Source: an uncultured archaeon
GTDB lineage: Archaea; Iainarchaeota; Iainarchaeia; Iainarchaeales; 0-14-0-20-30-16
NCBI GenBank assembly: GCA_964595665.1
Contig: CAZQQS010000006.1
Span: 1 to 30,326 of the forward strand
Reading direction: 5' to 3'
DNA: 30,326 nucleotides
The position numbers and the translations under genes are program-made. Below the pieces are notes generated by a model. The model did no database searches and was not told where the DNA came from. It saw only the letters and a program-made list of their open reading frames with translations. Below, piece by piece: positions 34 to 30,326 of this stretch. Within the stretch, counting starts at the first letter, position 1. Each line of letters opens with the position of its first letter.

Positions 34-2958
34 ATGAATTCATTTAATTTTGTTATTCCTTTGGCGTTTTACAATAAATTATCTGAAAGTCAAAGAAATG
101 AATTTATATTAATTTTAAATAATTATTTAATTTTAGATTTAAATTATGATGAAATTAATATTAGACAAAAAAATTTATCTGTAGATTTGGAATTATTCTT
201 TAAAAATAATGGAGAATTATTATTAGAAAAACCTTTTTATCAAGATAGTATTCTTTTTTCTGAAGAGTTTTTAGATGAAAAAACTTTTAAAGAATGGACT
301 CAATTATTTAAAGAAAATAGTGTTGCTAAAGATTTATTTAAAGATAAGTTATTACAAAATGAAGTGGAATTATCTATAAAATTATTTAATGAAGAATTTA
401 TACAAAATAAGGATGCGATATTAATTTTTAATTCAAATAAAGATTTAGAAAATGTGTGCATAGATTTACATTCAAAATATAGTTATATATCGACTTTAGC
501 TTGTGATGTTTATTTGACAAAAGATGAAAATATATTTATAAATTGGTTGCCTAAAAAAACAGGTACATATATATTGAAGATTTCCAAAGATGAGAATGTA
601 TATTATTCAAAAGAAATTGTGGTTAAAACTAAAAAACCAATTTATGTTAAAGATAATAATAGATCTGAGCTTTTTAATAAATATCCTTGGCCTGATAAAA
701 TTGTTGTTGGTTTAAGTCCAAATAAACCCAAAGTAGTTATTGAAAAATATGTTGTTAATACGAATTTATTGCAGAAAGATTTGGATGAAATAGTTGATGC
801 TATTTTGCCTACAAAATATTTAGTTAATGGATCTGTAAAATATTCTGAATCTGAATATATCAAAATTGAATTATTAGATCCAGATTTGGACAATAGTGAG
901 TTTGGTAATAATCCGTATATAATTAGAATAACTTTAGATTATACTGAATATTTTAAATCTAAAAAAGAATTGTTTGTTACTATAGATAAAAATATTCAAA
1001 TTGATTATGGTGTTTTTTATGGGGGTTTGTCTCCTGAAATTAATTTAATTGTGAATTTGGTAGATTCTGGATTAATTCTATATACTAATAATGAATTAAC
1101 GGATTTAATAAAAAATTATGCTTTTACAAGAGGTTGGGATTATTTGTTGGTTTCGAAAATCCCAGAAATTAATGTTGATAGCTATGAGCTTAAAGAATTT
1201 AACTATAGAGAAGTAATGAATTTGAAATCAAAAAATAATTTAGATTATAATGTTAAACCAGATATGGCATATGTTGGTTTGGAAGTAAGTTATTTAGATA
1301 ATTTAAAATTAATTTCTGCAGAGATTGGTTTATTAACTGCTTTAACATTATCCGAATATAATTTAAGATTATACGGCATTCCAGCAATTAATAATTTCCC
1401 ATTAAGAGTAAATATTGAATATTTATCTAATATTCCTTTAGTTAAGTCAGAACTGATAGAGTTAAGGAAAAAAGTTCAAGATTATTATATTAAAAATAAA
1501 TTCAATTATTTATTAATTGTTGCTGATGATTCTGAAATTCCTATGTTAGATGAATATGGGTTACTGCCTATTAATATCGTTGGAAAGCAACATAATCAAA
1601 TTTTAGATAATCTATTTTTTGGTAATATGAATGAAGATGTTTTTGTTGAATTAATTGTAGGACGATTACCTAGTTCTAATTATAATTATGTAAAAACTTA
1701 TTTTAATCAAGATACATTTTATTTTAAACCAAAAGATTTTAGATTTAAAACGTTATATTTTGAGGATAAAGGTAAAAGTAAAGCATTTGAGTTTGCTAAT
1801 GATTTCAAATTCAGATTTGCATTTACTACGACTTGGCCAAAATATTTTTTAGATTTAGAATCGGAAAACGAAATATCAGAAGTATTAGCAAATTCCGAAT
1901 ATTTGGAAATTAATTCACATGGTTATGATATTGGTTTTTTAACCCCGTATTCTAAAAGTGGTAAAATTGGGGATTTGCAGGATCAAATAATATATAGTAA
2001 GGATTTGTTAAATTTAGAGGAATATATTTTAAAAAAACAATTGTCTGATGAATTAAATAAAGCTTATTTAGATTTATTATTCTATACTATAGAAGATTTT
2101 CCTAAAATTAACAAGCAGCCTATAATAGTTGGGACATCTTGTTTTTTAGCACAGAGCTTCGGTAAACAAATATTACTTAAAAATGTTAAAAATTTTATTG
2201 GTTCTTATGACCCTGCAACACTATATTTTGATTTAAATCCAAATACTTATAATAAAAATAAGATTACTGTTGGGGAATTATTTTTGGATTATGTTAATGC
2301 AGTATATTTAAATAGAGAACATTCTGTAGAATTGGTGTTATATGGTGATCCTACGAGTTTGATTTATCCAAATAATATGTTTGAAAATGTAGTTTATGAA
2401 TTTAAAGACAAAAATTTAATTTTAAAATATCCTGCAAGTAAGTTGGATAATTTATTAACGTCTTTAAGTAAAGAAGAAATAGATTTATTTAGATATAAAG
2501 ATGTGGAAAAAATTAATTTTAGTTTGGACTATATTCCTTTTTGTCCTTTTATTGATGAAAATAGTATGATTCCTGTAGATGTAATGTCAACTGAGGATGT
2601 TTCTTTAATTACTTTGATTAAAACTAATGATAAAAATTATTATTTATTTAATGGTTGTAATGATCGTGATTTAGAGTTCTTTTTGAGTATAACCCCAAAT
2701 AAACTATTTATTGGATCTAACAAAACATTTTTTACAAATAGTTATAAGGATGATTTAAACTATAATACGCTAAGTAATTTTATAAAATCTAAACCAAAAA
2801 TATATGTGAGAGCACAAAATTCCAATGCTGAATTTATACCTGTAGATTATGCTAATTACTATGATAATAAAATAGATATTCATTTATCTTATTATGAATG
2901 GTTTAAATTAGTAATACAAGGTGCTGAACAAACAGGTTATGAAATTTTATTATCTTAA
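34..2958 (+). CDS. Large multidomain protein with a clan-CD / peptidase C25 (gingipain)-like cysteine peptidase core; possibly 5'-truncated by the window edge
   Basis: 974-aa ORF from the first ATG. The same frame is open from nt 1 (IDYEYFSAKAK precedes the Met), so the true start may lie upstream. aa ~495-710 read like the C25 fold: YLLIVADDSEIPM, ELIVGRLPSS, a His-Gly dyad INSHGYD (His codon 1918-1920), then IIVGTSCF (Cys codon 2140-2142). His precedes Cys, as in clan CD. No signal peptide in the visible N-terminus. The family call is from motif memory, not a search. Confidence 0.55.
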   Translation: MNSFNFVIPLAFYNKLSESQRNEFILILNNYLILDLNYDEINIRQKNLSVDLELFFKNNGELLLEKPFYQDSILFSEEFLDEKTFKEWTQLFKENSVAKDLFKDKLLQNEVELSIKLFNEEFIQNKDAILIFNSNKDLENVCIDLHSKYSYISTLACDVYLTKDENIFINWLPKKTGTYILKISKDENVYYSKEIVVKTKKPIYVKDNNRSELFNKYPWPDKIVVGLSPNKPKVVIEKYVVNTNLLQKDLDEIVDAILPTKYLVNGSVKYSESEYIKIELLDPDLDNSEFGNNPYIIRITLDYTEYFKSKKELFVTIDKNIQIDYGVFYGGLSPEINLIVNLVDSGLILYTNNELTDLIKNYAFTRGWDYLLVSKIPEINVDSYELKEFNYREVMNLKSKNNLDYNVKPDMAYVGLEVSYLDNLKLISAEIGLLTALTLSEYNLRLYGIPAINNFPLRVNIEYLSNIPLVKSELIELRKKVQDYYIKNKFNYLLIVADDSEIPMLDEYGLLPINIVGKQHNQILDNLFFGNMNEDVFVELIVGRLPSSNYNYVKTYFNQDTFYFKPKDFRFKTLYFEDKGKSKAFEFANDFKFRFAFTTTWPKYFLDLESENEISEVLANSEYLEINSHGYDIGFLTPYSKSGKIGDLQDQIIYSKDLLNLEEYILKKQLSDELNKAYLDLLFYTIEDFPKINKQPIIVGTSCFLAQSFGKQILLKNVKNFIGSYDPATLYFDLNPNTYNKNKITVGELFLDYVNAVYLNREHSVELVLYGDPTSLIYPNNMFENVVYEFKDKNLILKYPASKLDNLLTSLSKEEIDLFRYKDVEKINFSLDYIPFCPFIDENSMIPVDVMSTEDVSLITLIKTNDKNYYLFNGCNDRDLEFFLSITPNKLFIGSNKTFFTNSYKDDLNYNTLSNFIKSKPKIYVRAQNSNAEFIPVDYANYYDNKIDIHLSYYEWFKLVIQGAEQTGYEILLS

Positions 2959-18440: not shown

Positions 18441-18788
18441 TTATTTGGATTGCCAAGTAATAATATCTCCAAGTTTAAATTTAGAATAATGTTTTGTGGG
18501 TAATTCAATTAAATAAGTGCAAGGTTTTTTAGGGCTATAATGCAAACAAAATGGCTTTAAGATTGCTTTATCCACTACTTTTTTATCGTTGTCTAAGAAT
18601 ATTGCACATATTGGGGTAAACACAAATAACATGTGTATTGAATTTCTTAATTTAGCTTGTTTCTCCAAATAAAATATTAAGGCATAATTAAATTTTGTTT
18701 TGAACATTAGTCCTAAGGCCTTTGAAAAGAAAGATTTTGCGAGTTTGGTTTTTATAGTTAGGCAATTTTTGTCGTTTATATATAACAT
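18441..18788 (-). CDS. DUF192 (COG1430) domain protein
   Basis: The ORF track begins at a TTG (18812). The first ATG is 18788 (MLYINDKNC...), 28 nt downstream of a minus-strand TATA-like box (18810-18823), so I prefer 18788. AKSFFSKALGLMF..HMLFVFTPICAIFLDNDKKVV..YLIELP fits the DUF192 pattern (rGLM..M.f...piD..Fld..g.Vv..yvLEl). The stop is 2 nt from the stop of gene B. Confidence 0.75.
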   Translation of the reverse strand: MLYINDKNCLTIKTKLAKSFFSKALGLMFKTKFNYALIFYLEKQAKLRNSIHMLFVFTPICAIFLDNDKKVVDKAILKPFCLHYSPKKPCTYLIELPTKHYSKFKLGDIITWQSK

Positions 18789-18809
18789 AAAGCATAAAAT
18801 AATAGAAAA

Positions 18810-18823
18810 CAATATAAATATAC
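18810..18823 (-). promoter_or_regulatory. TATA-like box (tatatttatattg on the minus strand) for the DUF192 gene
   Basis: Centre is ~28 nt upstream of the minus-strand ATG at 18788. Confidence 0.4.
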
Positions 18824-18896: not shown

Positions 18897-18910
18897 TGGT
18901 GAGTGATATT

Positions 18911-19045
18911 ATGGGATTATCTGACTTATACTACAAGTTAGAAGAAAAATATTATGCTAGCTTAGATTGGTTTGATTCGAAAGGATTACACTTTTTTTAT
19001 AATTTTGATGCTTGGTTACAAAGTAAGAATATACCTTCTTTTCCA
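18911..19045 (+). other. Conserved cytoplasmic N-terminal peptide of protein C (MGLSDLYYKLEEKYYASLDWFDSKGLHFF..IPSF)
   Basis: Aligns with the D N-terminus: MGL.D.YY.LE.KYY..LD..D..GLH.....D......IPSF, immediately before the single TM helix. Confidence 0.7.
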
Positions 19046-22000
19046 ATAATGACTTTGTTATTGTTGATTTTTATTGCTGTTGTTGTTTTGGTAATATTAT
19101 ATTTCTTAGGTGTTTTAGGTACATCTATGACTGTTAATTTACAATTAGTTAACTCTAAAGACAACTACACTATGGCAAACATATCATTTATGGTAAATGA
19201 TAGTGTTAAAAGTGAATCTTATGTTACTGATAGTTCTGGTGAAGCTAAAGTAAAAGTTCGTAAAAATATCCCATTTTACGTAACAATTAACTCATCTGAA
19301 TATATTTTAGAAAATTCTGAATTTACTGCTTATGAAAGTAATGAATTAATTAAAGTTTACTTAAAGAGCTCATCAGCTTTATTAAGTTCTAAAGTTTTAA
19401 AGATCTTTGAGAATTTTGATTCTGGAATTTTGTTTTCTGAAGCAATAAGCGTAAATTTAACTTGTACTGGTAATTCAAACTATAACGAAACTATAGAAAT
19501 ATTGTCTGGTGTTAGAGATTTAAGCGATTTGCCAGAAGATTGTGGTAATTTAGAAGTAAGTGTAGATGAATACAATTATTCTAAAAGTTATAACTTAGCT
19601 AATCATGAATTTGAAGTTGCAGTAGATATTGCAGTTCCTAAAGGAACTATTATAATTAATGTATTAAATAACAGTTTAGAGCCAATTTCTAATGTTCAAG
19701 TTACTGCTTATTCTAATAATGTTCGTTATGCAGAAAGTTTAACTTCTGAAAGTGGAGTTGTTCAATTTGAATTAGATGCTGTAAGAGATTATACATTTAC
19801 TTTGAATCATTTGGGTCAAGATTATTCTACTTTAGTTACTTCTAATATGGAATCTGAATGTAATGGAAAAGTTTTAAAAAACGAAACTAAAACTTGTTCT
19901 TTAACTATGTTGGCAACAAATATTGGAAAAATTAACTTAGAAATATATGATGTTTCTGGTAAACCAATAACTAATGCTACAATTAAAGTATTGAAAAACA
20001 ATGTAGAACATTATAATTATAACTTAACGGCTGGAGATGCTGGAAAATTCATTTTTGGTGTGCCAGAATTAAGTCCATATAGAATAGTTATTGATTCTTT
20101 TGCATATATGATTTTTGATAAAGAAATTATGCCTTCTAATACTCCTACAAAAATTAATTTGGAGCCTGTATTAGATTCTCCTGTATTAAATGTTTTAGTT
20201 TTAGCTAATGGAGATCCAGTAGCAAAAGCAAATGTTCAATTGTATAAAGAGAATAATTTGATTTTAACTAAAGTAACTGGTGCCGATGGTATTGCTTATT
20301 TTGATAGATTAGAAAAAGATGTGCCTTATAGTGTTAAGGTATTAAAAAGTGATTACTCTCAAAGTTCTGAACCTTTGATTTTAAATCCAAGAATAGAAAA
20401 TACAATTACTGTTAATATGGTTGTTGGAAAAGGTAATGTAAATGTTTATGGTTATAATAAACAAGGTGTTGCTTTAGATGGTTTAACTGCTGAAATTTAT
20501 GATGTTTATACTAATAGAAAATTAGGTGAAGCACAATTAAAAGAAGGTTTGGCAACAATTTATGGTGTAAGTGCTGATAAAACAGTTTATGCTAAATTAG
20601 TTTCTGATTCAGGAGTAGGTTATTCTTTAGTTTCAGATATTAAAGCAAATTTCAATTCTGATTTAATAGTATATTTTAGTGATTATTCTAATAATTTTAC
20701 AATGGAAAATATTGGTATATTTAATTTAGATGGTTCATCAGTTTATACTGTGCCTTACCAAGTTGTAGAAAATAATGAATATTATGGTTTATTTTTATTA
20801 AATGTTCCAAAAGGTGCATTTAATGAATCTGAAATTTTATTTGTTGGTGGAATAGATTTAGAAAATGCAAATATTTTAATTAAAGATGCAAAAATGTTGA
20901 ATGCGAAATTAGAAAAAGGTTTGACTTATACTTCACCTTTAGGTTTTGCAGAAGATATGTTGAATAAAACTCAAGACGATGGTATTTGGGCTCAATTAAA
21001 AGCATCTAATTTAAACCCTGGAACTTATATCGTAAAAGTAAATTTTATTATTGACTCAGATCCTAAATCTCAATTATTTAATTTAGGTTATAGAGCTAGT
21101 TTGAAATCTGGTGGAACATACTTAAGATATCCTATAGATAATGTTTTGGGCCAAAATGAAAGTGCATCTAATAAATTAGGATTTTATTCTGAATTAGCTA
21201 AAAATGTAAACTTTAGAATTGGAAGTTTAAATTGTGTAAATTCTGGTTGTATAGAAATGACTGCTCAAGATGCACAAGGAAATAGAACTAAAGTTTATGA
21301 TGAATTATATTCTGTTTATAATTTGTCTACTGATTTAACTTTTAAAATAATTTCTGCACAAAAAACAACTTACAATGATTTAGTTTTTGAGATTGCATCT
21401 TTGAATAATGGATTAGATATTTCTAATGTTAATTTAAGATCTAATTCTAATAATTTAATAGTTCAAAAAACTACTAATAAATATACTACTAAATTAAATG
21501 AATTCGGACCAAATGTAGAATTAAATGGAAATATTAATTTTGCAGCAAATAAATCTGGAACTAATATTTTGAAAATAACTATTTATAATAATAAAAATGA
21601 AGAAATATTTACAAAAGAGATTGCTGTGACTGTAGATGCTCCAAAAGATTTGAGAGTAGAATATTTGCCAGCATTAATTGTGCCTTATGTAAATAATTTA
21701 GGTGCTGTATTTGTAAGCGATGCTTTAGATTCAACTCCTGTAGAAGCACATGTTAGTGCATATTTAAACGATGTTTTAATTGGTTCTGGAGTTACAGATT
21801 TTGAAGGTAAAATTCCTTTAGAAATAACTAAACCAAGTTCTGGAGATTCTTTAAAATTAAAAGCTACTGCTCCAGGATATAATGCTATAGAATCTGAATT
21901 AAAAATAACTGAGAATATTTTAATTGCTGATGTTCCTGAAATTACATATAATATTAATATTGATGAATTAGATTATTTAGTAAAGAATATTACTTTTACA

Positions 22001-25000
22001 ACTCCTTTACCAAATAAATTAAAAATACAAAGAATTAGTTTTACTAATAATGAATTTAATAAATTCTTAGAAGTTAAACATAATTTAAGAGCAAATTATG
22101 AATTTGAAAAAACTTTGAGTTTAGAGTTATCTGCAAAATTAACTACTGATGGAAAGAATTTATTAGAGCCAAAAACAATTAATACTTTTTTAGATTTGGT
22201 TGTAACATCTAATGAAATTAATGAAGTTTGGAATGTAAAAGTACCCGTTACTTTCTACATCCAATTATATGATTCTTTAGATAGTGTTGATTGTTTGAAA
22301 TTAGAGGTTTCTAATGATGATTTATCTGCAGAAGAATATGGTTTTAAATTAATTAATACTTGTACTTACAATGAAGTTGCTACTGAATTGTATAATGTTA
22401 AAACTTTTGTTGAATGGTCAGAAAATAAATTAGGTGAATTTGAATATGATAAAAAGATAATTGATTCTGAAGGTATGGATTTATTTGAATCTATTTCTAA
22501 GAGCACAAGTTATTCTTTATTATTCAAACCAAGTTCTAAAATATCTTCAGGAAAATCAAAAGCAAATTTTATAGTAAAAGCATATTATAGAACTAATTCA
22601 GGATTGCAAGAATTAGTTGTAAATAAAGAATTAGATATTATTTATAGTAAATTAAGTAATTGTTTAAAAATTACTACATCTGATGGTACTTTAATTAATC
22701 CTTCTGGTGTAAATAACCCTATTGTTGTTGGAGTAAGTCCATTTGGTATGGGTATGAATGCAATGAATGGTTTATATGGCAATTCTTATAATCCTTATTT
22801 AACAAATTCTTATGGTTCTGCAAATATTGTGCCAAATAGTGCAAGTAATTTATGGGATCAATTATCTTCAACATCAAATACTCAAGGTAATTTTAGTACT
22901 GCTGCAAATTTAGCAAGTTTAAATAGTAATTCTGGTGTTGGTTCAAATAATGTTCAACAAATGATGTTAATGTTACAAATGATGGGTGGGAGTTATGGTG
23001 GAATGAATCCCCAAATGTATTTGGCTCCTACAAGTAATTTAACTATTACTAATACTTGTGCTTACGATGTGGATGTTCAAGTTGGGGCTGCTGCTCAAAT
23101 TATGGTTAGTCCAAATTCATCTACAATTACTATTGGAAGTAATTCTCAAGTAACGGTAACTGCAAATAGTTTGCCTGGAATTTATAATTTAAATATTTTA
23201 GCAGGTTATAATGGAAATTTAAATCCGTTTGCTGTTTTACCAATAAATGTAATTGATTATGCTTCTGAAACAGTTCAAGATGATTGTTTTAAAATTGAAG
23301 GTGAACCAACATTAGATATGAGTTCGTTTACAAAAAATTATAAACAATTAAAAATTTACAATTATTGTTTTTCAAAAGGAGTTGTGTTTGATGATGCAAA
23401 TCCTATAGAATTAAATGCTTTATTTGCTGCTGAAGATTTAGTTATGAAAGACAAAGATGGAAAAGATGTTAAAGTTTTAGATAAAGGACAAAAATATGCT
23501 GAATTAAAAATAATTAAAAGTCCACAAATAGAAACAAGTAATACTTATGGTAAATATCAATATATAGAATTATTAATTTTGAAAAATTCTGCAATACAAG
23601 AAGTTAGTTTTAATAATTATGCTGGTACAAATACTTTGAGTGATACAGCTCAATCTTTAAGTGTTTTAAGAAGTGCTGCAACAGCATTAAATCAAAATGT
23701 GAACTTTAAAGCATTAGTTACAATTAATTCAAGAATTGGTTATGGTATGACTGCTCAAAAGAAAGCTGTTGTAAAAACATTAACAATAAGAGATTTATGG
23801 AATTTATTGGCTTTGGCTGGTGCTGGAGAATTAGATGCTGGAAATAGAACTTGTACTCCTAATAAATGGAGTTCATTTATTGATGATGATATTTCTTACA
23901 GTGTAAAATATTCTCAAATAAAAGATAGAATTCCATTAAATAATGAGAGTTGGGATTTATTAGATAAAGATTGTTTTGGATCATATGATAATGTTAAATT
24001 TAAAGACGATTATTTAGAACAAACTTCTAATGGAATAACTGTTAAATTAACTCCTCATTTCAAAGATAGAAAATTGTATTTTGATATTGATGTTAAAGGT
24101 TCTGGAGATAAATTTGAATCTACATATGATTTTGGTTATACTTTGCAATCATATTGGCATAGTGAAACACCTTTGCAAAAAAGAGATAGAACTTTGAAAT
24201 TCATTTTAACAATTACAGATGTTACTGCTGGAGACCCTGCTAAAGATCCAACTGCAGATGCAAAAACTCAAAATACAAAAGATGAATTTTGTATTGATAA
24301 GTTTGGTAATGAATGGAAATCTTTGAGTACTTATGGTTTTGGTTCTTTAGAAGGATTTAATAATGGAAATATGTTAAGTTTTGATTATAGAACTACTGTT
24401 ACTCCAGATTGTACAAAAACATTTTGTGATGCAGAACAATTAAAGAAATATTTGAAAGGTAAATTTACTACTTCTTTGTCAACTAATATTGTTTATGAAA
24501 CTTATTTGTCTCAAAAATATGTTGTTAAAAATGCAACTGATAAGAATGTAATTGAATTGTTGCCTTCAAAAGTATTGGATAAAGTTTCAATGTATTTCTT
24601 AGAAAAATATTTAGCTGAAGCAATTGCTGATACGGCTATTGAAACAACTGGATTTGATAAGTTTAAAAACTTGGTTAAAGAAATGCCAAATTTATTTTTA
24701 GTTACTACTAGTGGATGTTATACTGGAACTACAGCTTATGGTTTTACTGTAGTTGGTTCAAATAAATGTTATTATAATGCACAAAAAATGTCTCAAGATG
24801 CTTCAGGACAAACATATATGAAAGATATTTTTAAAGGTGCTTTTGACGTAGTATTCTTAGTTCCTGAAACTAAATGGATGTTAATAGGTTTTAATCAAGC
24901 TTGGAATGTAAAAGTTGAAACAGTTTATTTGAAACCTGATAATTATAAAATGTATTTTGAAGGAAGTAATTTCTTAAGTTATGATGCTAATGTATTTGGT

Positions 25001-25519
25001 GTTGAAGTGAAGAATCCTGGAATATATTTAATACAAATGGATTTAAATGCTGGGAAAGAAGTTTTGAGAATTCAACCTGCTGAATATTTTATAGATCAAA
25101 CTTATAAGGCAAATACTATAGACAGATTCTTTTATAGTTTGCCAATAGATCCTACAAGAGATGGATTTGTTGGAACTTATAATGGACAATTTGGTTTATG
25201 TACTAAAGCAAATGCTATGGATGTTTTAAGCTTCCCACAAATAAATACTTGTTTAAGTACTAATAAAAATGTAAATAAATTAACTTTCGCAAGTCAAAAT
25301 TATTTGGAAATTAATTATACAAATTACGATTATATTGTAAATTTCCCAAGTGCTTGTAAAAACAATAGTACTTGTGAAATAAATGGAAATAATAGTTTTA
25401 AAGTTACTGCTCCTAAAAACGCATATACTTTAGAAAACATATTCAATACTCCTCAAAATTATTGTTATTCTGAAAGTAATAATATTGTTAAGGTAGTTTA
25501 TTCTGGTGAACAAAGGTGA
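18911..25519 (+). CDS. Giant N-terminally anchored surface protein C: conserved cytoplasmic N-peptide + TM + ~6 CarboxypepD_reg-like modules + orphan domains + low-complexity linker + Cys-rich C-terminal region
   Basis: The track start is a TTG at 18896. I prefer ATG 18911 because the product then begins MGLSDLYYKLEEKYY, matching the SD-defined start MGLRDFYYSLENKYY of the downstream paralog. 2202 aa. TM helix at ~19046-19120 (IMTLLLLIFIAVVVLVILYFLGVLG). Repeated modules of the type ..ANVQLYKENNLILTKVTGADGIAYFDRLEKDVPYSVKVLKSDY.. It ends with TGA (25517-25519), the only non-TAA stop in the window. Confidence 0.85.
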   Translation: MGLSDLYYKLEEKYYASLDWFDSKGLHFFYNFDAWLQSKNIPSFPIMTLLLLIFIAVVVLVILYFLGVLGTSMTVNLQLVNSKDNYTMANISFMVNDSVKSESYVTDSSGEAKVKVRKNIPFYVTINSSEYILENSEFTAYESNELIKVYLKSSSALLSSKVLKIFENFDSGILFSEAISVNLTCTGNSNYNETIEILSGVRDLSDLPEDCGNLEVSVDEYNYSKSYNLANHEFEVAVDIAVPKGTIIINVLNNSLEPISNVQVTAYSNNVRYAESLTSESGVVQFELDAVRDYTFTLNHLGQDYSTLVTSNMESECNGKVLKNETKTCSLTMLATNIGKINLEIYDVSGKPITNATIKVLKNNVEHYNYNLTAGDAGKFIFGVPELSPYRIVIDSFAYMIFDKEIMPSNTPTKINLEPVLDSPVLNVLVLANGDPVAKANVQLYKENNLILTKVTGADGIAYFDRLEKDVPYSVKVLKSDYSQSSEPLILNPRIENTITVNMVVGKGNVNVYGYNKQGVALDGLTAEIYDVYTNRKLGEAQLKEGLATIYGVSADKTVYAKLVSDSGVGYSLVSDIKANFNSDLIVYFSDYSNNFTMENIGIFNLDGSSVYTVPYQVVENNEYYGLFLLNVPKGAFNESEILFVGGIDLENANILIKDAKMLNAKLEKGLTYTSPLGFAEDMLNKTQDDGIWAQLKASNLNPGTYIVKVNFIIDSDPKSQLFNLGYRASLKSGGTYLRYPIDNVLGQNESASNKLGFYSELAKNVNFRIGSLNCVNSGCIEMTAQDAQGNRTKVYDELYSVYNLSTDLTFKIISAQKTTYNDLVFEIASLNNGLDISNVNLRSNSNNLIVQKTTNKYTTKLNEFGPNVELNGNINFAANKSGTNILKITIYNNKNEEIFTKEIAVTVDAPKDLRVEYLPALIVPYVNNLGAVFVSDALDSTPVEAHVSAYLNDVLIGSGVTDFEGKIPLEITKPSSGDSLKLKATAPGYNAIESELKITENILIADVPEITYNINIDELDYLVKNITFTTPLPNKLKIQRISFTNNEFNKFLEVKHNLRANYEFEKTLSLELSAKLTTDGKNLLEPKTINTFLDLVVTSNEINEVWNVKVPVTFYIQLYDSLDSVDCLKLEVSNDDLSAEEYGFKLINTCTYNEVATELYNVKTFVEWSENKLGEFEYDKKIIDSEGMDLFESISKSTSYSLLFKPSSKISSGKSKANFIVKAYYRTNSGLQELVVNKELDIIYSKLSNCLKITTSDGTLINPSGVNNPIVVGVSPFGMGMNAMNGLYGNSYNPYLTNSYGSANIVPNSASNLWDQLSSTSNTQGNFSTAANLASLNSNSGVGSNNVQQMMLMLQMMGGSYGGMNPQMYLAPTSNLTITNTCAYDVDVQVGAAAQIMVSPNSSTITIGSNSQVTVTANSLPGIYNLNILAGYNGNLNPFAVLPINVIDYASETVQDDCFKIEGEPTLDMSSFTKNYKQLKIYNYCFSKGVVFDDANPIELNALFAAEDLVMKDKDGKDVKVLDKGQKYAELKIIKSPQIETSNTYGKYQYIELLILKNSAIQEVSFNNYAGTNTLSDTAQSLSVLRSAATALNQNVNFKALVTINSRIGYGMTAQKKAVVKTLTIRDLWNLLALAGAGELDAGNRTCTPNKWSSFIDDDISYSVKYSQIKDRIPLNNESWDLLDKDCFGSYDNVKFKDDYLEQTSNGITVKLTPHFKDRKLYFDIDVKGSGDKFESTYDFGYTLQSYWHSETPLQKRDRTLKFILTITDVTAGDPAKDPTADAKTQNTKDEFCIDKFGNEWKSLSTYGFGSLEGFNNGNMLSFDYRTTVTPDCTKTFCDAEQLKKYLKGKFTTSLSTNIVYETYLSQKYVVKNATDKNVIELLPSKVLDKVSMYFLEKYLAEAIADTAIETTGFDKFKNLVKEMPNLFLVTTSGCYTGTTAYGFTVVGSNKCYYNAQKMSQDASGQTYMKDIFKGAFDVVFLVPETKWMLIGFNQAWNVKVETVYLKPDNYKMYFEGSNFLSYDANVFGVEVKNPGIYLIQMDLNAGKEVLRIQPAEYFIDQTYKANTIDRFFYSLPIDPTRDGFVGTYNGQFGLCTKANAMDVLSFPQINTCLSTNKNVNKLTFASQNYLEINYTNYDYIVNFPSACKNNSTCEINGNNSFKVTAPKNAYTLENIFNTPQNYCYSESNNIVKVVYSGEQR
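25514..25519 (+). promoter_or_regulatory. Shine-Dalgarno AGGTGA for gene D, containing the TGA stop of gene C
   Basis: AGGTGA lies 5 nt before ATG 25525. Its last three bases are the stop codon of C. Confidence 0.65.
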
Positions 25520-25524
25520 ATTAA

Positions 25525-25650
25525 ATGGGATTGAGAGATTTTTATTATAGTTTGGAAAACAAATATTATGGTTTGTTAGATAAATTAGACAAATCAGGAT
25601 TACATGTTTACAAGGTTGTAGATAAAGTAGATAAAGTAATACCTTCTTTT
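25525..25650 (+). other. Conserved cytoplasmic N-terminal peptide of protein D (MGLRDFYYSLENKYYGLLDKLDKSGLHVY..IPSF)
   Basis: See the C motif. It is far better conserved than the ectodomains that follow. Confidence 0.7.
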
Positions 25651-28600
25651 GTTTTGGTAATAATTTTATTTGGTTTAATTATTGCTGGAATAATTATAGG
25701 ATTATTATCTGTTTTTAATATTGGTTTCCCAAATGATCCCATTACTTTTGTGTTCACAGATAAGCATGGTGAAAATTTCTCTAATCAAGTAGTATCTTAT
25801 TCTTTCAATGGAGAGAATCGAGGTTTTTTAGAAACTGATGCTTTAGGAGTAATTTATTTTGATAGTGCAAAAAGTGGAGATGTTTTTGCATTTGAGATCC
25901 CAAAAGGCAATTCTGTTGAAACAATAACTAGAACTATAACTAAAGATAGGTTATATAATATTAAGTTGAATTTTTCTTTGGCTCAAGATAGTGTAAATTT
26001 TACAGTAAATTCTATTGATAATTTAGCATTGAAACCAATTAATATTTACTTTGTTTGTGCTAATGCAAATGCAGTTGTGCCTGAGAGTAGAATTAATTCT
26101 ATAGATAGTACTTATAATATTTCTTTTGATTCTGATTGTGGGGTTTTGAGTGCAAATATAAAATCTAATTATTATGAGGAGGCATATCAAGAAATTTATT
26201 CTGGAGTTAATATAAATTTAAGACCTAATGATTATTCTGGAAATATGCAAATTACTGTAAATATTTATGATGAATCTAATTTGCCTATAGCTGGAGATGC
26301 AAGTGTAAATATATCTCAAAATGGAATTCCTATTAAATATGGTAATAGAGTTTCTGAAAGTGTTTATACTTTTACTGGATTAAGTGCTGCAACTTATGTT
26401 GTAAATGTTACTAAAAGTGGTTATGCTTCACAAAATCAAACTGTTGTTTTAGATGGTTCATCAACTACTCAAAATATTTCTATGTATTTGAAAAAGACTT
26501 CTGGATTAGGAAATTTTGTTTTAAAAATTGTAGGTATTGATGGTAAAGCAATTAAAGATGTTGCGGTAATTGTAAAATCACAAGATGAATCTGGAAATCA
26601 AAAAGAGATTGTAAGTCAAGGTAAAACAGATGCTTCTGGAAATATTGATTTAGATGTGCCAGACATTTCTCAAAAATATTGGATATTGGCTAGTAAAACT
26701 GGTTATACTTCTTTGAGTAGATCTAATGTATCTATATCTGAAACTCAATTAACTTTGGTTATGAGAAAAACTAATGAAGCTAATTTATTAAGAGTTAAAA
26801 TTTTTGATGAATTTGGTTTTGCAGTAAATAATGCAAATGTTGCTTTGATGGATGCAAATGATAATGTAATTGCGCCATATTTTGGTGTGACAGATTTTAA
26901 TGGTATTGCTAAGAATTCTGCTGAAAATGGAACTTATAAAGTATATGTTTACAAAGGTTCGTTTAGTGGAATGAGTGAATTATTTTCATATGATTCGGAT
27001 GCTTTAAATGCAAATGAATATGTAATTGTAAATTTGAGCTTGCCAAAAGCTGGTTGGGATATTACTTTAAAGGATTCTTTTGGTTTGCCTGTGCCTAATG
27101 CTTTGATAACTTTATATGATGCTTACAATTATGAGCCAATAGAAATTGGTAATAGATATGCTTCTCCTGAAGGTACATTATCTATACAAAATTTAAGAGT
27201 GGATAGAAAATATTTTATTGTTGCGAGTGCAAATAGTTTTGAAAATTATATTTCAAAATCTAAGTTTTTAACTGCAAATGGTTTAGCAGTAGATAATTTT
27301 GTAATGGAAAAACAAAAAATAGATTCTAGAATTAAAGTTGAATCTATTGGAACTTATGATTTAGAAAATAATAAAGTGTATAAATTAGCTTCAAATACTG
27401 AATATGTTTCTCGATTTAAGATTACTTTGCCAGAAGGCGAAATAAATTATGAAGATTTATTTGCAAACTTTGTTTTAGGTTCATTAGATGCTGTTGAAAA
27501 AGAACCAATATATATTAAAAAAGTAGAATATAGTGGAAATGCAAACTTAATGAAAGGTAGAAATTATTCTGAGAATAATATTGAAAAAAGTATTGGAGAT
27601 ACAAAAAGTTTTGATAATGTAATTTATGATGGTTCTCCATTCCAAGATCAAATTAAATGGGTTCAATTAACTTGGGATTTAGAAAGTCATAATATTGACT
27701 CAGGAATATTATTTGTTGATGTTTATATGCAAGTAAGAGCTGGAGTTCAAGATGGTGTAAAATCTGATTTATCATTTAATATTTTAGCTAAAGAAGATGA
27801 ATATTATTCTAGTCCTGAGAATTTATCTTCTGAAGAAAGTAATAGTGGTTTATTTGCTCCAAAAAATAAAATCTTTTTCGTTGTTGGAGAAGGCCAACAA
27901 GTATGTGATGATTTATTTTGTTTTGAAGGTTCATATTTAGATTTGACTGATGATTTAAAAAGTTCTGTAATGGGTGAATTACCTTATGTTGCTAAATTAG
28001 GTAGAGATTATGTTTTAAATTTTAATTTAGTAAATAATAGGGATGTTCCATTAACTAATTATAGAGTTATTATAGAGAATCCACAAAAAAGTTTAGAAAT
28101 GGATTCGGGCATAATTTATTCTGCAAATAATTTGGAATTTAATAAACCAGAACCAATAAAATTTGCAGATAACTTTAGTTTTACTTTTAGAGATGTTGCT
28201 ACATTAAATCAAAATGGTGCAATAAAAGGAGAAATTAATTTTATACCTATTGCTGAAGGTTCAAATTCATTTAAAATAACTGTAATTGAAGATAGAGAAA
28301 TAATTTATACAAAAGAATTTTATGTGAGTGTAGTTTCAAATAAAGAAATATTTGTTGAGATTATTCCCGAGATTTTGCCTTCATATGTTGATACAAATAT
28401 TAAATTTATTGTAAAAGATTTTGATAATAATGCTTATTTAGAAGATGCATTTGTAAGAATAGTAAATATTTATGATTCAGAATTAGCTTCTGGAAGTACA
28501 AATGAATTTGGAGAAGTTGTTTTAGAAATTGTAGGACAAAATCCAAATACTGATTTGTATATGAAAGTTTATAAAGAAGAATATAGAGCTTTTGAAAAAG

Positions 28601-30326
28601 TATTAAGAACTAGTGATAAATTTATTACTATTGATCCAGAAGAATTAAGTGTAAAAGCTAATGTTTTTGAGATGAAAGGTCAAGGAGTATTGAATTTAAA
28701 AAATACTTCTCGATTACCTGTTGTAATTGAATCAATTGTAGTAGAAGGTAATTTTGATGAGTATGTAAATGTATTAGAAACAAATAATTATTTAGAAAAT
28801 AGTAGTAAAGATTTAGTAATGGATAAAGAACATAGTTATGAAGTTCCAGTAAATGTTTCTTTAACTACAATTGCATCATATTTGAAAGAAAGTACAGAAT
28901 ATGAGGGCAAAGTAATTATTACTGTAAAACCAAAAGATTTATTAGGAGATCAAACTATAAGATCATGGACTTATGAAGTTCCGTTAAAATTATTTATTTC
29001 TTTAGGTAAAGGTTTAGATAATTTAGATTGTTTAGGTTTAGATAAAACTAAATCTGAAATAGTTTCTAATAATGGTAAGAATGATAGTGATTCTTTAACT
29101 GTTGTAAATGGTTGTACTGTTGATGGTGTTCCTGTAAAGATAAGAAATTTAGAAGCTAAGATTACTTGGAAAGGTAATGCTTTAGGTGCATTTACTTTTG
29201 TTAAGAATGAAATTTCTTCAAGAATTCAAAGTGCATATTATGTAACTTTATTAACTACAATGTTAAATCACGAAGAATCAATGTTTGTATTGAATTTTAA
29301 TCCAGCTACTGGAAGAGTTGCTGGAACTAATACTGCAGAAATAGAATTAAGAGCAAGTTATTTCACAGATAATGGTATTGAATTTGTTACTGCAAAAACA
29401 GAATATAGTGTAAGTGTAGTAGATATGAAATCTTGTATAACTTATGATTTGCCTGATGCAGAAGTAGATTTAATTAAGATTCCAAGAGATTCTACTGGTG
29501 AATTTAAAATCAGAAATGATTGTGAGGCTGGATTTTCAGTATTATTAACAGATTTGCCAAAGGACTTTTTAGATGTTACTCCTAAAGAATTTGATTTACC
29601 TGCACAAAGTGAAGTATTGGTAAAAATAAATCCTAATAATTCTAATGTTGGTGTTTATTTATTAGAAGTAAGAGGTAAAACTTCTAAAGAAAGTTTTAAT
29701 GGTGTAAGAGTTGGTTCTGAGGCATTAAGAGTATTTGTTGCTCCATTGGAAACAGATTGTTTGGTACTGGATAATTATGAATTTAATTTAGGTAAAAGCG
29801 ATGAGAATAGATATGCTTATTTGATTAACAGATGTTATTACAAAGATTTACAAGCTTTGTATAATATTGATGTTACTCATGGTGGTTTAGGTTTATCTGG
29901 TGAATGTGCTAGTCAAAACTGGCAAGGTGTTGTTTTAGGTTCTTTAGCTGGTGGTGTTGCTTCTGCAACTGCTGGTATTGCTTATGGTAATGTTTTAGGA
30001 AGTATTGGTGGCGATCCTTTTAAAGCTGCTAAAGCAGAATCTGATTTATTAGCCAAAGTAGGTATTACTAAAAAAAGTGGTAAATTTTATGATTCTGAAG
30101 GTGCTGAAATGAATCTAGAACAAGTAAATTATGCCCTATCTGAAATTAAAGATAATACTATGGGTTATAATAAAGATGGTAAATTAGTTGCCGGTCCCGC
30201 AGTTACCACTCCAACTGCTCCTGCTCCTGCTCCTGCTCCTGCTGCTCCTGCTGCTGTTCCTGCTGCTGCTCCTGCTGCTCCTGCTGCTGCTCCTGCTGCT
30301 GCTCCTGCTGCTGCTCCTGCTGCTGC
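25525..30326 (+). CDS. Giant N-terminally anchored surface protein D (paralog of C), 3'-partial: runs off the window end
   Basis: Not in the supplied ORF track because it has no stop. I translated frame 1 from ATG 25525 by hand; every 60-nt line starts a codon, and I found no in-frame stop through 30326 (>=1600 codons). AGGTGA SD at 25514-25519, 5 nt before the ATG. It begins MGLRDFYYSLENKYYGLLDKLDKSGLHVYKVVDKVDKVIPSF, then a TM helix (VLVIILFGLIIAGIIIGLLSVF), ~6 CarboxypepD_reg-like modules (e.g. VAVIVKSQDESGNQKEIVSQGKTDASGNIDLDVPDISQKYWILASKTGY), regions collinear with C, a Gly-rich hydrophobic segment, and a Pro/Ala repeat at the window end. Confidence 0.85.
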   Translation, partial: MGLRDFYYSLENKYYGLLDKLDKSGLHVYKVVDKVDKVIPSFVLVIILFGLIIAGIIIGLLSVFNIGFPNDPITFVFTDKHGENFSNQVVSYSFNGENRGFLETDALGVIYFDSAKSGDVFAFEIPKGNSVETITRTITKDRLYNIKLNFSLAQDSVNFTVNSIDNLALKPINIYFVCANANAVVPESRINSIDSTYNISFDSDCGVLSANIKSNYYEEAYQEIYSGVNINLRPNDYSGNMQITVNIYDESNLPIAGDASVNISQNGIPIKYGNRVSESVYTFTGLSAATYVVNVTKSGYASQNQTVVLDGSSTTQNISMYLKKTSGLGNFVLKIVGIDGKAIKDVAVIVKSQDESGNQKEIVSQGKTDASGNIDLDVPDISQKYWILASKTGYTSLSRSNVSISETQLTLVMRKTNEANLLRVKIFDEFGFAVNNANVALMDANDNVIAPYFGVTDFNGIAKNSAENGTYKVYVYKGSFSGMSELFSYDSDALNANEYVIVNLSLPKAGWDITLKDSFGLPVPNALITLYDAYNYEPIEIGNRYASPEGTLSIQNLRVDRKYFIVASANSFENYISKSKFLTANGLAVDNFVMEKQKIDSRIKVESIGTYDLENNKVYKLASNTEYVSRFKITLPEGEINYEDLFANFVLGSLDAVEKEPIYIKKVEYSGNANLMKGRNYSENNIEKSIGDTKSFDNVIYDGSPFQDQIKWVQLTWDLESHNIDSGILFVDVYMQVRAGVQDGVKSDLSFNILAKEDEYYSSPENLSSEESNSGLFAPKNKIFFVVGEGQQVCDDLFCFEGSYLDLTDDLKSSVMGELPYVAKLGRDYVLNFNLVNNRDVPLTNYRVIIENPQKSLEMDSGIIYSANNLEFNKPEPIKFADNFSFTFRDVATLNQNGAIKGEINFIPIAEGSNSFKITVIEDREIIYTKEFYVSVVSNKEIFVEIIPEILPSYVDTNIKFIVKDFDNNAYLEDAFVRIVNIYDSELASGSTNEFGEVVLEIVGQNPNTDLYMKVYKEEYRAFEKVLRTSDKFITIDPEELSVKANVFEMKGQGVLNLKNTSRLPVVIESIVVEGNFDEYVNVLETNNYLENSSKDLVMDKEHSYEVPVNVSLTTIASYLKESTEYEGKVIITVKPKDLLGDQTIRSWTYEVPLKLFISLGKGLDNLDCLGLDKTKSEIVSNNGKNDSDSLTVVNGCTVDGVPVKIRNLEAKITWKGNALGAFTFVKNEISSRIQSAYYVTLLTTMLNHEESMFVLNFNPATGRVAGTNTAEIELRASYFTDNGIEFVTAKTEYSVSVVDMKSCITYDLPDAEVDLIKIPRDSTGEFKIRNDCEAGFSVLLTDLPKDFLDVTPKEFDLPAQSEVLVKINPNNSNVGVYLLEVRGKTSKESFNGVRVGSEALRVFVAPLETDCLVLDNYEFNLGKSDENRYAYLINRCYYKDLQALYNIDVTHGGLGLSGECASQNWQGVVLGSLAGGVASATAGIAYGNVLGSIGGDPFKAAKAESDLLAKVGITKKSGKFYDSEGAEMNLEQVNYALSEIKDNTMGYNKDGKLVAGPAVTTPTAPAPAPAPAAPAAVPAAAPAAPAAAPAAAPAAAPAA
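30217..30326 (+). repeat. GC-rich cct/gct tandem repeat encoding a Pro/Ala linker (APAPAPAPAAPAAVPAAAPAAPAAAPAAAPAAAPAA...), truncated by the window end
   Basis: From 30217 to the window end, every complete codon is cct or gct except one gtt. The unit drifts from cct-gct to cct-gct-gct-gct. Confidence 0.9.

Follow-up and report, generated by a model that had tools for sequence, protein, structure and literature searches.

The window analysed here is the whole stretch of 30,326 nucleotides (nt) of contig CAZQQS010000006.1 (GenBank assembly GCA_964595665.1, positions 1 to 30,326 of the forward strand) from an uncultured archaeon of the Iainarchaeota, with a G+C content of 24.7%. It carries two genes directly behind each other, C and D (Table 1), and the proteins they encode share a conserved N-terminal peptide which is the subject of this analysis. 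The N-terminus of C is MGLSDLYYKLEEKYYASLDWFDSKGLHFFYNFDAWLQSKNIPSFPIMTLLLLIFIAVVVLVILYFLGVLG (translation of 18911-19120), that of D is MGLRDFYYSLENKYYGLLDKLDKSGLHVYKVVDKVDKVIPSFVLVIILFGLIIAGIIIGLLSVF (translation of 25525-25716). The pattern common to both is MGLxDxYYxLExKYY...GLH...IPSF, after which a hydrophobic helix follows. When aligned, the two peptides agree in 17 of their first 27 residues and share IPSF, whereas the ectodomains show 23% identity over 1,142 columns. An earlier inspection of the letters alone (the sequence-only reading) had written both starts identically to our translations and had put the identity of the first 27 residues at about 60%, far above that of the ectodomains. 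Both statements hold.

Each of the two ATG codons is preceded by a GGTGA Shine-Dalgarno-like site (Table 1), hence the starts of C and D are credible. The open reading frame (ORF) lister gives TTG 18896 as start of C instead; we rejected this codon, which adds only 5 residues and overlaps the GGTGA at 18898-18902. The site of D overlaps the stop codon of C, which suggests translational coupling of both giant genes.

The ectodomains of both proteins contain immunoglobulin (Ig)-like domains according to Pfam, namely CarboxypepD_reg, bMG3 and Big_1. CarboxypepD_reg (PF13620) is located at residues 432-503 of C (E=1e-14) and is found in D as well (E=8e-17). The ectodomains of C and D moreover hold 29 and 19 N-x-S/T sequons, respectively. 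A second transmembrane (TM) helix is absent at the C-terminus of C, and so is a sorting signal. The N-terminal helix is thus the only visible anchor of C. In the related locus L002 the D orthologue is complete and consists of 1,758 amino acids (aa). The part of D at the window end (residues ~1556-1600, window ~30190-30324) is a Pro/Ala-rich low-complexity run, TPTAPAPAPAPAAPAAVPAAAPAAPAAAPAAAPAAAPAA; in the L002 orthologue the matching region contains no more than short segments rich in Pro/Ala/Thr.

The structure of C residues 1-75 was predicted with AlphaFold2 using a 25-sequence alignment. The model consists of a helix at residues 3-23, a K-G-L turn, a second helix at residues 27-38, a KNIP loop and a third helix at residues 43-66, with a mean predicted local distance difference test score (pLDDT) of 82.7. 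Helix 1 exhibits a heptad-like hydrophobic stripe (L6/Y7, L10, Y14, L18, F21), which is flanked by the conserved residues E11, Y15, D19 and D22. Among 115 sequences, Y7, E11 and D19 in helix 1 and Y30 in helix 2 are conserved to at least 90%. Within the KNIPSFP motif (22 sequences) the same applies to I41, P42 and P45, while F44 is invariant. The junction to the TM helix is near-invariant and reads (K/R)(N/G)IPSFP. Overall the peptide is rich in aromatic and acidic residues.

Table 1. Features of genes C and D, loci with the tandem arrangement, and other genes of the window.
Feature	Position	Strand	Basis
Gene C, giant surface protein, 2,202 aa: N-peptide, TM helix, ectodomain with CarboxypepD_reg	18911..25519	+	ORF, Pfam
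Gene D, paralogue of C, partial: 1,600 aa in the window, runs off its end	25525..30326	+	ORF, Pfam, alignment
GGTGA Shine-Dalgarno-like site of C, 8 nt before ATG 18911	18898..18902	+	read from sequence
GGTGA Shine-Dalgarno-like site of D, overlaps TGA stop of C, 5-nt spacer to ATG 25525	25515..25519	+	read from sequence
C helix 1, residues 3-23, LSDLYYKLEEKYYASLDWFDS	18917..18979	+	AlphaFold2 helix H3-23, pLDDT about 80-84
C helix 2, residues 27-38, after K-G-L turn	18989..19024	+	AlphaFold2 helix H27-38
KNIPSFP motif of C, residues 39-45, joins helix 2 to the membrane helix	19025..19045	+	conservation
C hydrophobic signal-anchor helix (putative), residues 46-70	19046..19120	+	AlphaFold2 helix H43-66
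D N-peptide, residues 1-42, MGLRDFYY...DKVIPSF, D-type subtype	25525..25650	+	profile E=2e-20
D hydrophobic signal-anchor helix (putative), residues 43-64	25651..25716	+	layout same as C
Tandem loci L002-L004, L006-L009, L012, L014, L017-L021, L023, L024		same strand	profile search
DUF192 (COG1430) gene, divergent from C	18441..18812	-	
Protein A, giant, 1,329 aa	7846..11835	+	
Protein B, giant, 2,175 aa	11911..18438	+	
974-aa ORF, no Pfam match	34..2958	+	

A search with full-length C retrieved 26 giant homologues of 1,409-2,727 aa (weakest E=3e-4). The N-peptide is found at the start of all 26 (P0002-P0027), and it is kept in P0026 and P0027 although their ectodomains barely align to C (E=9e-9 and 3e-4). 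Source names, where given, are Candidatus Diapherotrites, Candidatus Micrarchaeota or 'archaeon'. Comparing 8 C orthologues, residues 1-45 represent the most conserved of 2,158 sequence windows with 81% identity versus 42% overall.

A hidden Markov model search, as the sequence-only reading had suggested, was done with a profile of 47 positions built from 22 N-termini and run exhaustively against 1.84 billion representative proteins. The similarity goes far beyond chance, and the motif recurs in orthologues as well as in distant relatives: 915 protein clusters match at E≤1e-3, of which 318 reach E≤1e-10. Giant proteins need such an exhaustive profile search; a word-indexed search using the ~50-residue peptide returned contig-end fragments only. 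Named sources of peptide-bearing proteins are Iainarchaeota/Diapherotrites and Micrarchaeota. The lengths of the matched proteins are bimodal, with fragments on the one hand, which are probably mostly cut at contig ends, and full-length proteins, measuring 2,000-2,750 aa with a maximum of 3,597 aa, on the other. Positions and copy number were read from the best 150 of the 915 matches, each of which exhibits one N-terminal copy with the matched stretch being over by about residue 105. Start statistics were derived from 165 proteins. Here the match begins at residue 2 in the median and at residue 63 at maximum, and 80 of the 165 begin exactly at profile position 1. Together with the GGTGA sites before both ATG codons, these values support correct starts and a truly N-terminal position of the peptide, as in the sequence-only reading.

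The ectodomains fused to the peptide had likewise been proposed for inspection. Among the 128 matches with more than 200 aa there are 41 in which phmmer detects no resemblance to either the C or the D ectodomain although the peptide is kept at E<1e-13; about 20 of these 41 exceed 1,900 aa. In the giant family PF13620 is positioned about 430-580 residues in. P0067, P0092 and P0098, three of the ectodomain-unlike giants, show CarboxypepD_reg at a similar position and the same layout in Pfam, hence the ectodomain-unlike giants are probably very divergent members of one superfamily. P0150 (L026:2392-4437) is a complete protein of 681 aa composed of the N-peptide, a TM helix, six divergent InlB B-repeats (PF18998) and a Cys-rich C-terminus, and it is encoded among genes unrelated to those around the giant pair. 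The module can thus head a different ectodomain. As a general rule, constraint on the peptide is thus much stronger than on the ectodomain. The peptide heads hundreds of related giants (2,000-3,600 aa), which make up a large family of surface proteins, as yet without a name, in the small-celled DPANN archaea.

The sequence-only reading had named no family for the peptide, and the databases agree with that. Using hmmscan against Pfam (E≤10), the N-termini of C and D yield only weak, unrelated matches to PF08999 and PF06024 over the hydrophobic segment, and NCBIfam gives no meaningful match to either of them. Among PDB sequences the best match to the peptide profile (E=0.069) is noise, and Foldseek returns 0 matches with the AlphaFold2 model. 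Neither the motif nor the gene pair is described in the literature searched, in which the papers on nanohaloarchaeal giant proteins and surface layers (S-layers) were left aside except for a term search of the S-layer preprint. The module is a new, unnamed domain, the general kind of which is familiar as a family-specific head on large exported proteins.

Throughout the family IPSF(P) is followed by an uncharged stretch of 24 residues in the median, with a strongly hydrophobic core of 17 residues in the median. In 145 sequences the N-terminal flank of this stretch contains 1.59 Lys+Arg compared to 0.72 in the C-terminal flank. Counted by sequence, Lys/Arg are more frequent in the N-terminal flank in 66% and less frequent in 8%. 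Based on this charge bias together with the Ig-like domains and the N-x-S/T sequons of the ectodomains, an N-in/C-out topology is well supported. The single hydrophobic helix and the orientation that the sequence-only reading had implied are thereby retained.

As to the fate of this helix, an extended cleavable signal peptide has to be considered, in which the whole ~70 residues would be removed by signal peptidase I. The 42-residue extension would then pace or route export in the manner of the extended signal peptide region (ESPR), YSIRK or KxYKxGKxW and not serve anchoring. The peptide indeed occupies the very start of exported proteins of great size, and the hydrophobic core has a median of 17 residues and is followed by a small-residue/Gly/Pro-rich stretch. 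Moreover AxA-like sites occur in some homologues, e.g. SSAFA/SSS in P0015 and FFANA/EVS in P0032 (the slash marks the site). However, signal-peptidase -3/-1 patterns show no enrichment downstream of the core, amounting by a crude pattern count to 87% in the sequences and 87% in composition-matched shuffles. Strict AxA is found after the core in 10.7% versus 9.7% in shuffles. The uncharged stretch is also longer than is usual in signal peptides, C is devoid of other membrane anchors and of sorting signals, and neither N-terminus matches the Pfam models of ESPR (PF13018; MNKIYKVIWS-type), YSIRK-G/S or KxYKxGKxW. We regard removal of the N-terminus as rather unlikely, and a pacing or routing role of this kind as similarly doubtful. 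The lack of enriched -3/-1 patterns combined with the lack of another anchor in C favours an uncleaved signal-anchor without proving it, so that the absence of a cleavable signal peptide is plausible.

Two further signal types were rejected. A twin-arginine translocation (Tat) signal does not fit, there being no Arg in residues 1-45 of C and a single one (R4) in residues 1-42 of D. Nor does a class III signal, as the leader of C and D comprises 42-45 residues ending in IPSF(P) and is devoid of a short basic [KR]-[GA] leader.

Our best explanation, to which we give somewhat better than an even chance, is a portable biogenesis and anchoring head made of a cytoplasmic two-helix hairpin and an uncleaved signal-anchor. 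The first ~42 residues of C and D would fold as an aromatic/acidic two-helix hairpin that stays in the cytoplasm, joined via (K/R)(N/G)IPSFP to one TM helix which acts as uncleaved signal-anchor in N-in/C-out orientation. Leaving the ribosome first, the peptide would fold and thereby keep the net-acidic N-terminus in the cytoplasm. With the N-terminus held inside, the ectodomain of more than 2,000 aa would be committed to co-translational export through the signal recognition particle (SRP)/Sec route, and after export the TM helix would tether the giant protein to the membrane. The conserved acidic/aromatic face may bind the paired subunit or else a conserved partner at the cytoplasmic or translocon side. 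Position, conservation, predicted fold, charge bias, modularity and the tandem gene order are findings of this analysis, while the functional steps are inferred from them. The sequence-only reading had suggested targeting, oligomerisation or coupling to an intracellular partner as conceivable roles of the peptide.

By a rule known from eukaryotic studies, N-terminal folding fixes the orientation of signal-anchor proteins. C and D resemble type II (N-in/C-out) signal-anchor proteins by one N-proximal TM helix, a positive-inside bias, the large size of the ectodomain behind this helix and a structured N-terminus, which would oppose being translocated itself. In contrast to the peptide family, type II proteins form a topological class and not a homologous family, and for C and D retention of the anchor is presumed.

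Several observations speak against a hairpin with an uncleaved anchor. The confidence of the AlphaFold2 prediction is moderate (predicted template modelling score, pTM, 0.51), and the other four models score lower (62-76). The hydrophobic core, with a median of 17 and a 10th percentile of 12 residues, overlaps in length with long signal-peptide h-regions, and sites resembling AFA/S or AQA/N are present after the core in some homologues. A net acidic peptide is moreover unusual for a cytoplasmic flank. Finally no partner has been identified; in the loci examined only a pilin-like gene (see below) is conserved beside the pair.

To survey the gene arrangement, GTDB genomes were scanned with the pattern [EQ]xKNIPSFP, which was taken from the closer 8-sequence subset and samples the KNIPSFP subgroup only. 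The scan yielded 20 archaeal loci, most of them titled Candidatus Iainarchaeum or Diapherotrites, including one from the complete genome of archaeon GW2011_AR10. L025 (Ignavibacteria) was discarded as a motif locus, being a chance match (E=1e-3) on an 89-aa ORF. The scanned loci and two loci fetched by protein look-up were all searched with the peptide profile. In the window and in 16 loci (Table 1; L003 and L004 carry the same genes) a D-type gene comes directly after a C-type gene in the same orientation, both with the peptide. L003 and L020 show 3-4 peptide bearers in a row. This conserved tandem with its subtype-specific peptides is a wider context that the sequence-only reading had missed.

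The C-type consensus conserved across genomes is ...KG[ILV]P[VL]Y..[VI]D.[IL]E.KNIPSFP, while ...K[IV]P[IV]YK[IL][IV][DE]P[IV]DK[IV][VIF]PSF[AVLM] is conserved across 14 other loci as D-type consensus. Since each subtype is conserved across genomes, the pair is ancient and the head was kept in both copies. Judged by these consensus sequences, the C-type and D-type subtypes are ancient and orthologous across genomes.

This arrangement can also be read such that pairing is the main role of the peptide. The hairpins would zip C-type and D-type proteins made from one messenger RNA in a 1:1 manner, resulting in a cytoplasmic four-helix bundle and a TM pair. The fixed order on the same strand with the peptide always in both genes agrees with such a handle, as do the two conserved subtypes, the overlap of the D ribosome-binding site with the C stop codon in the window and the heptad-like hydrophobic stripe in helix 1. 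However, P0150 bears the module alone in an unrelated neighbourhood, and in L003 and L020 there are rows of 3-4 bearers. We consider pairing quite unlikely as the main role.

In 18 loci a gene of 480-620 aa is located directly upstream of the C-type gene (e.g. L003:8101-9891, L014:8173-9684). Wherever its 5' end is present, the encoded protein has a class III (type IV pilin-like) N-terminus of the form M..[KR]GF[TN][LM]F[TS].[LV]V. It has no Pfam match. The window as well as L002, L005 and L006 lack this pilin-like gene.

In PilN-PilM and FtsN-FtsA a short N-terminal cytoplasmic peptide of a bitopic protein binds a cytoplasmic partner. By analogy the peptide of C and D might be a docking signal bound by a lineage-specific cytoplasmic or membrane partner, perhaps of a pilus-like surface apparatus. 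The conserved polar residues E11, D19, D22 and D33 suggest a specific binding face, and the pilin-like gene directly upstream of the C-type gene in the 18 related loci would be compatible with the apparatus. Against this, apart from that gene no other candidate partner gene is conserved beside the pair, the gene itself is lacking in the window and the three loci named above, and no ATPase or platform genes are seen in the loci examined. We see only a slim chance for docking. The chance is just as small for a farther-reaching proposal, according to which the hairpin would be the recognition or assembly signal of a DPANN-specific apparatus, with the C/D giants, joined in the cytoplasm through their hairpins, and the pilin-like protein encoded upstream in most lineages forming a dedicated organelle for cell contact or host attachment, the export of which would depend on the peptide and not solely on a standard signal peptide.

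That there is no special module, and the similarity merely reflects residual paralogy of C and D or wrong starts, is almost certainly incorrect: C and D are indeed paralogues, but the peptide is the most conserved window and is kept where ectodomains are unalignable, it is N-terminal in the best 150 of the 915 matches, and ribosome-binding sites precede both ATG codons.

The portable head favoured here can be compared with known systems. ESPR (Pfam PF13018; PMC2805444, PMC8151025) belongs to autotransporters and two-partner-secretion proteins. Like the C/D peptide it represents a conserved N-terminal block before a hydrophobic core, occurs on exported surface proteins of unusual size and exceeds the passenger in conservation. 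However, ESPR is bacterial, ~25 residues long, basic and situated within a cleaved signal peptide, whereas the C/D peptide is archaeal, ~42 residues long and net acidic, is predicted to form a two-helix hairpin followed by a segment of TM length, and shows no sequence match to ESPR. The YSIRK-G/S and KxYKxGKxW motifs of Gram-positive giant adhesins are likewise family-specific N-terminal motifs which mark large surface proteins for an export route or site. They differ by being short and inside the n-region of cleaved bacterial signal peptides, by another fold and length, and by having no sequence match. Archaeal class III (type IV pilin-like) signals are also N-terminal processing or anchoring elements of archaeal surface proteins (PMC4858521); in contrast, the C/D leader has 42 residues, is helical and lacks both a short basic leader and a [KR]-G/A cleavage motif. 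PilN and FtsN share with C and D a conserved short cytoplasmic N-terminus, a TM helix and an external domain, with conservation concentrated in the peptide. For the C/D peptide, however, no actin-like or other partner was found, and there is no sequence similarity. ESPR/YSIRK/KxYKxGKxW and PilN/FtsN are the closest functional analogues of the C/D peptide, but not homologues.

A way of life based on contact with other cells is assumed for DPANN archaea, whose surface machinery is largely unknown. The ~47-residue profile provides a sharp, searchable marker for 915 clusters (50% identity) of giants which are otherwise too divergent to be recognised. Being the best-conserved part of these giants, the peptide is an obvious experimental handle, and it would justify a new Pfam/NCBIfam domain entry. 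If it is true that the peptide controls export or pairing of proteins of more than 2,000 aa in organisms lacking SecA, the extended signal peptides of bacteria would have their counterpart in archaea.

Regarding the surroundings of the pair, the arrangement of the DUF192 gene relative to C (Table 1) is the same only in L002, L005 and L006, which are the closest relatives of the window. In L002 a gene of 843 aa (L002:18369-20900), located downstream of the D orthologue and beyond the region covered by the window, overlaps the stop codon of this orthologue. The encoded protein starts with a signal-like sequence of its own and contains a region rich in Gly and Ser. It corresponds (E=8e-37) to the C-terminal portion of a D-type protein in L003 which is longer (2,194 aa). 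Hence D appears to be split into two genes in this lineage. We also compared the 843-aa protein to the C-terminus of C of the window and obtained no match.

At the contig edge of L004 (L004:1-528) a gene of the exosortase/archaeosortase family (PF09721) is located just upstream of three motif-bearing giant genes. L001, an European Nucleotide Archive (ENA) contig with a coverage of 0.47x, is a close relative of the window locus. Here the gene caller splits the C region into numerous short genes, which probably results from errors of the low-coverage assembly. P0001 (64 aa) is a truncated D N-terminus.

Upstream of C the window encodes two further giants, A and B, and a shorter ORF near its beginning (Table 1). 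Both A and B start with a signal peptide, contain CARDB domains and carry a TM helix at the C-terminus. Their cytoplasmic tails both end with ...ILE(N/K)KLK(Q/E)KTGYDL, and their anchoring polarity is opposite to that of C and D.

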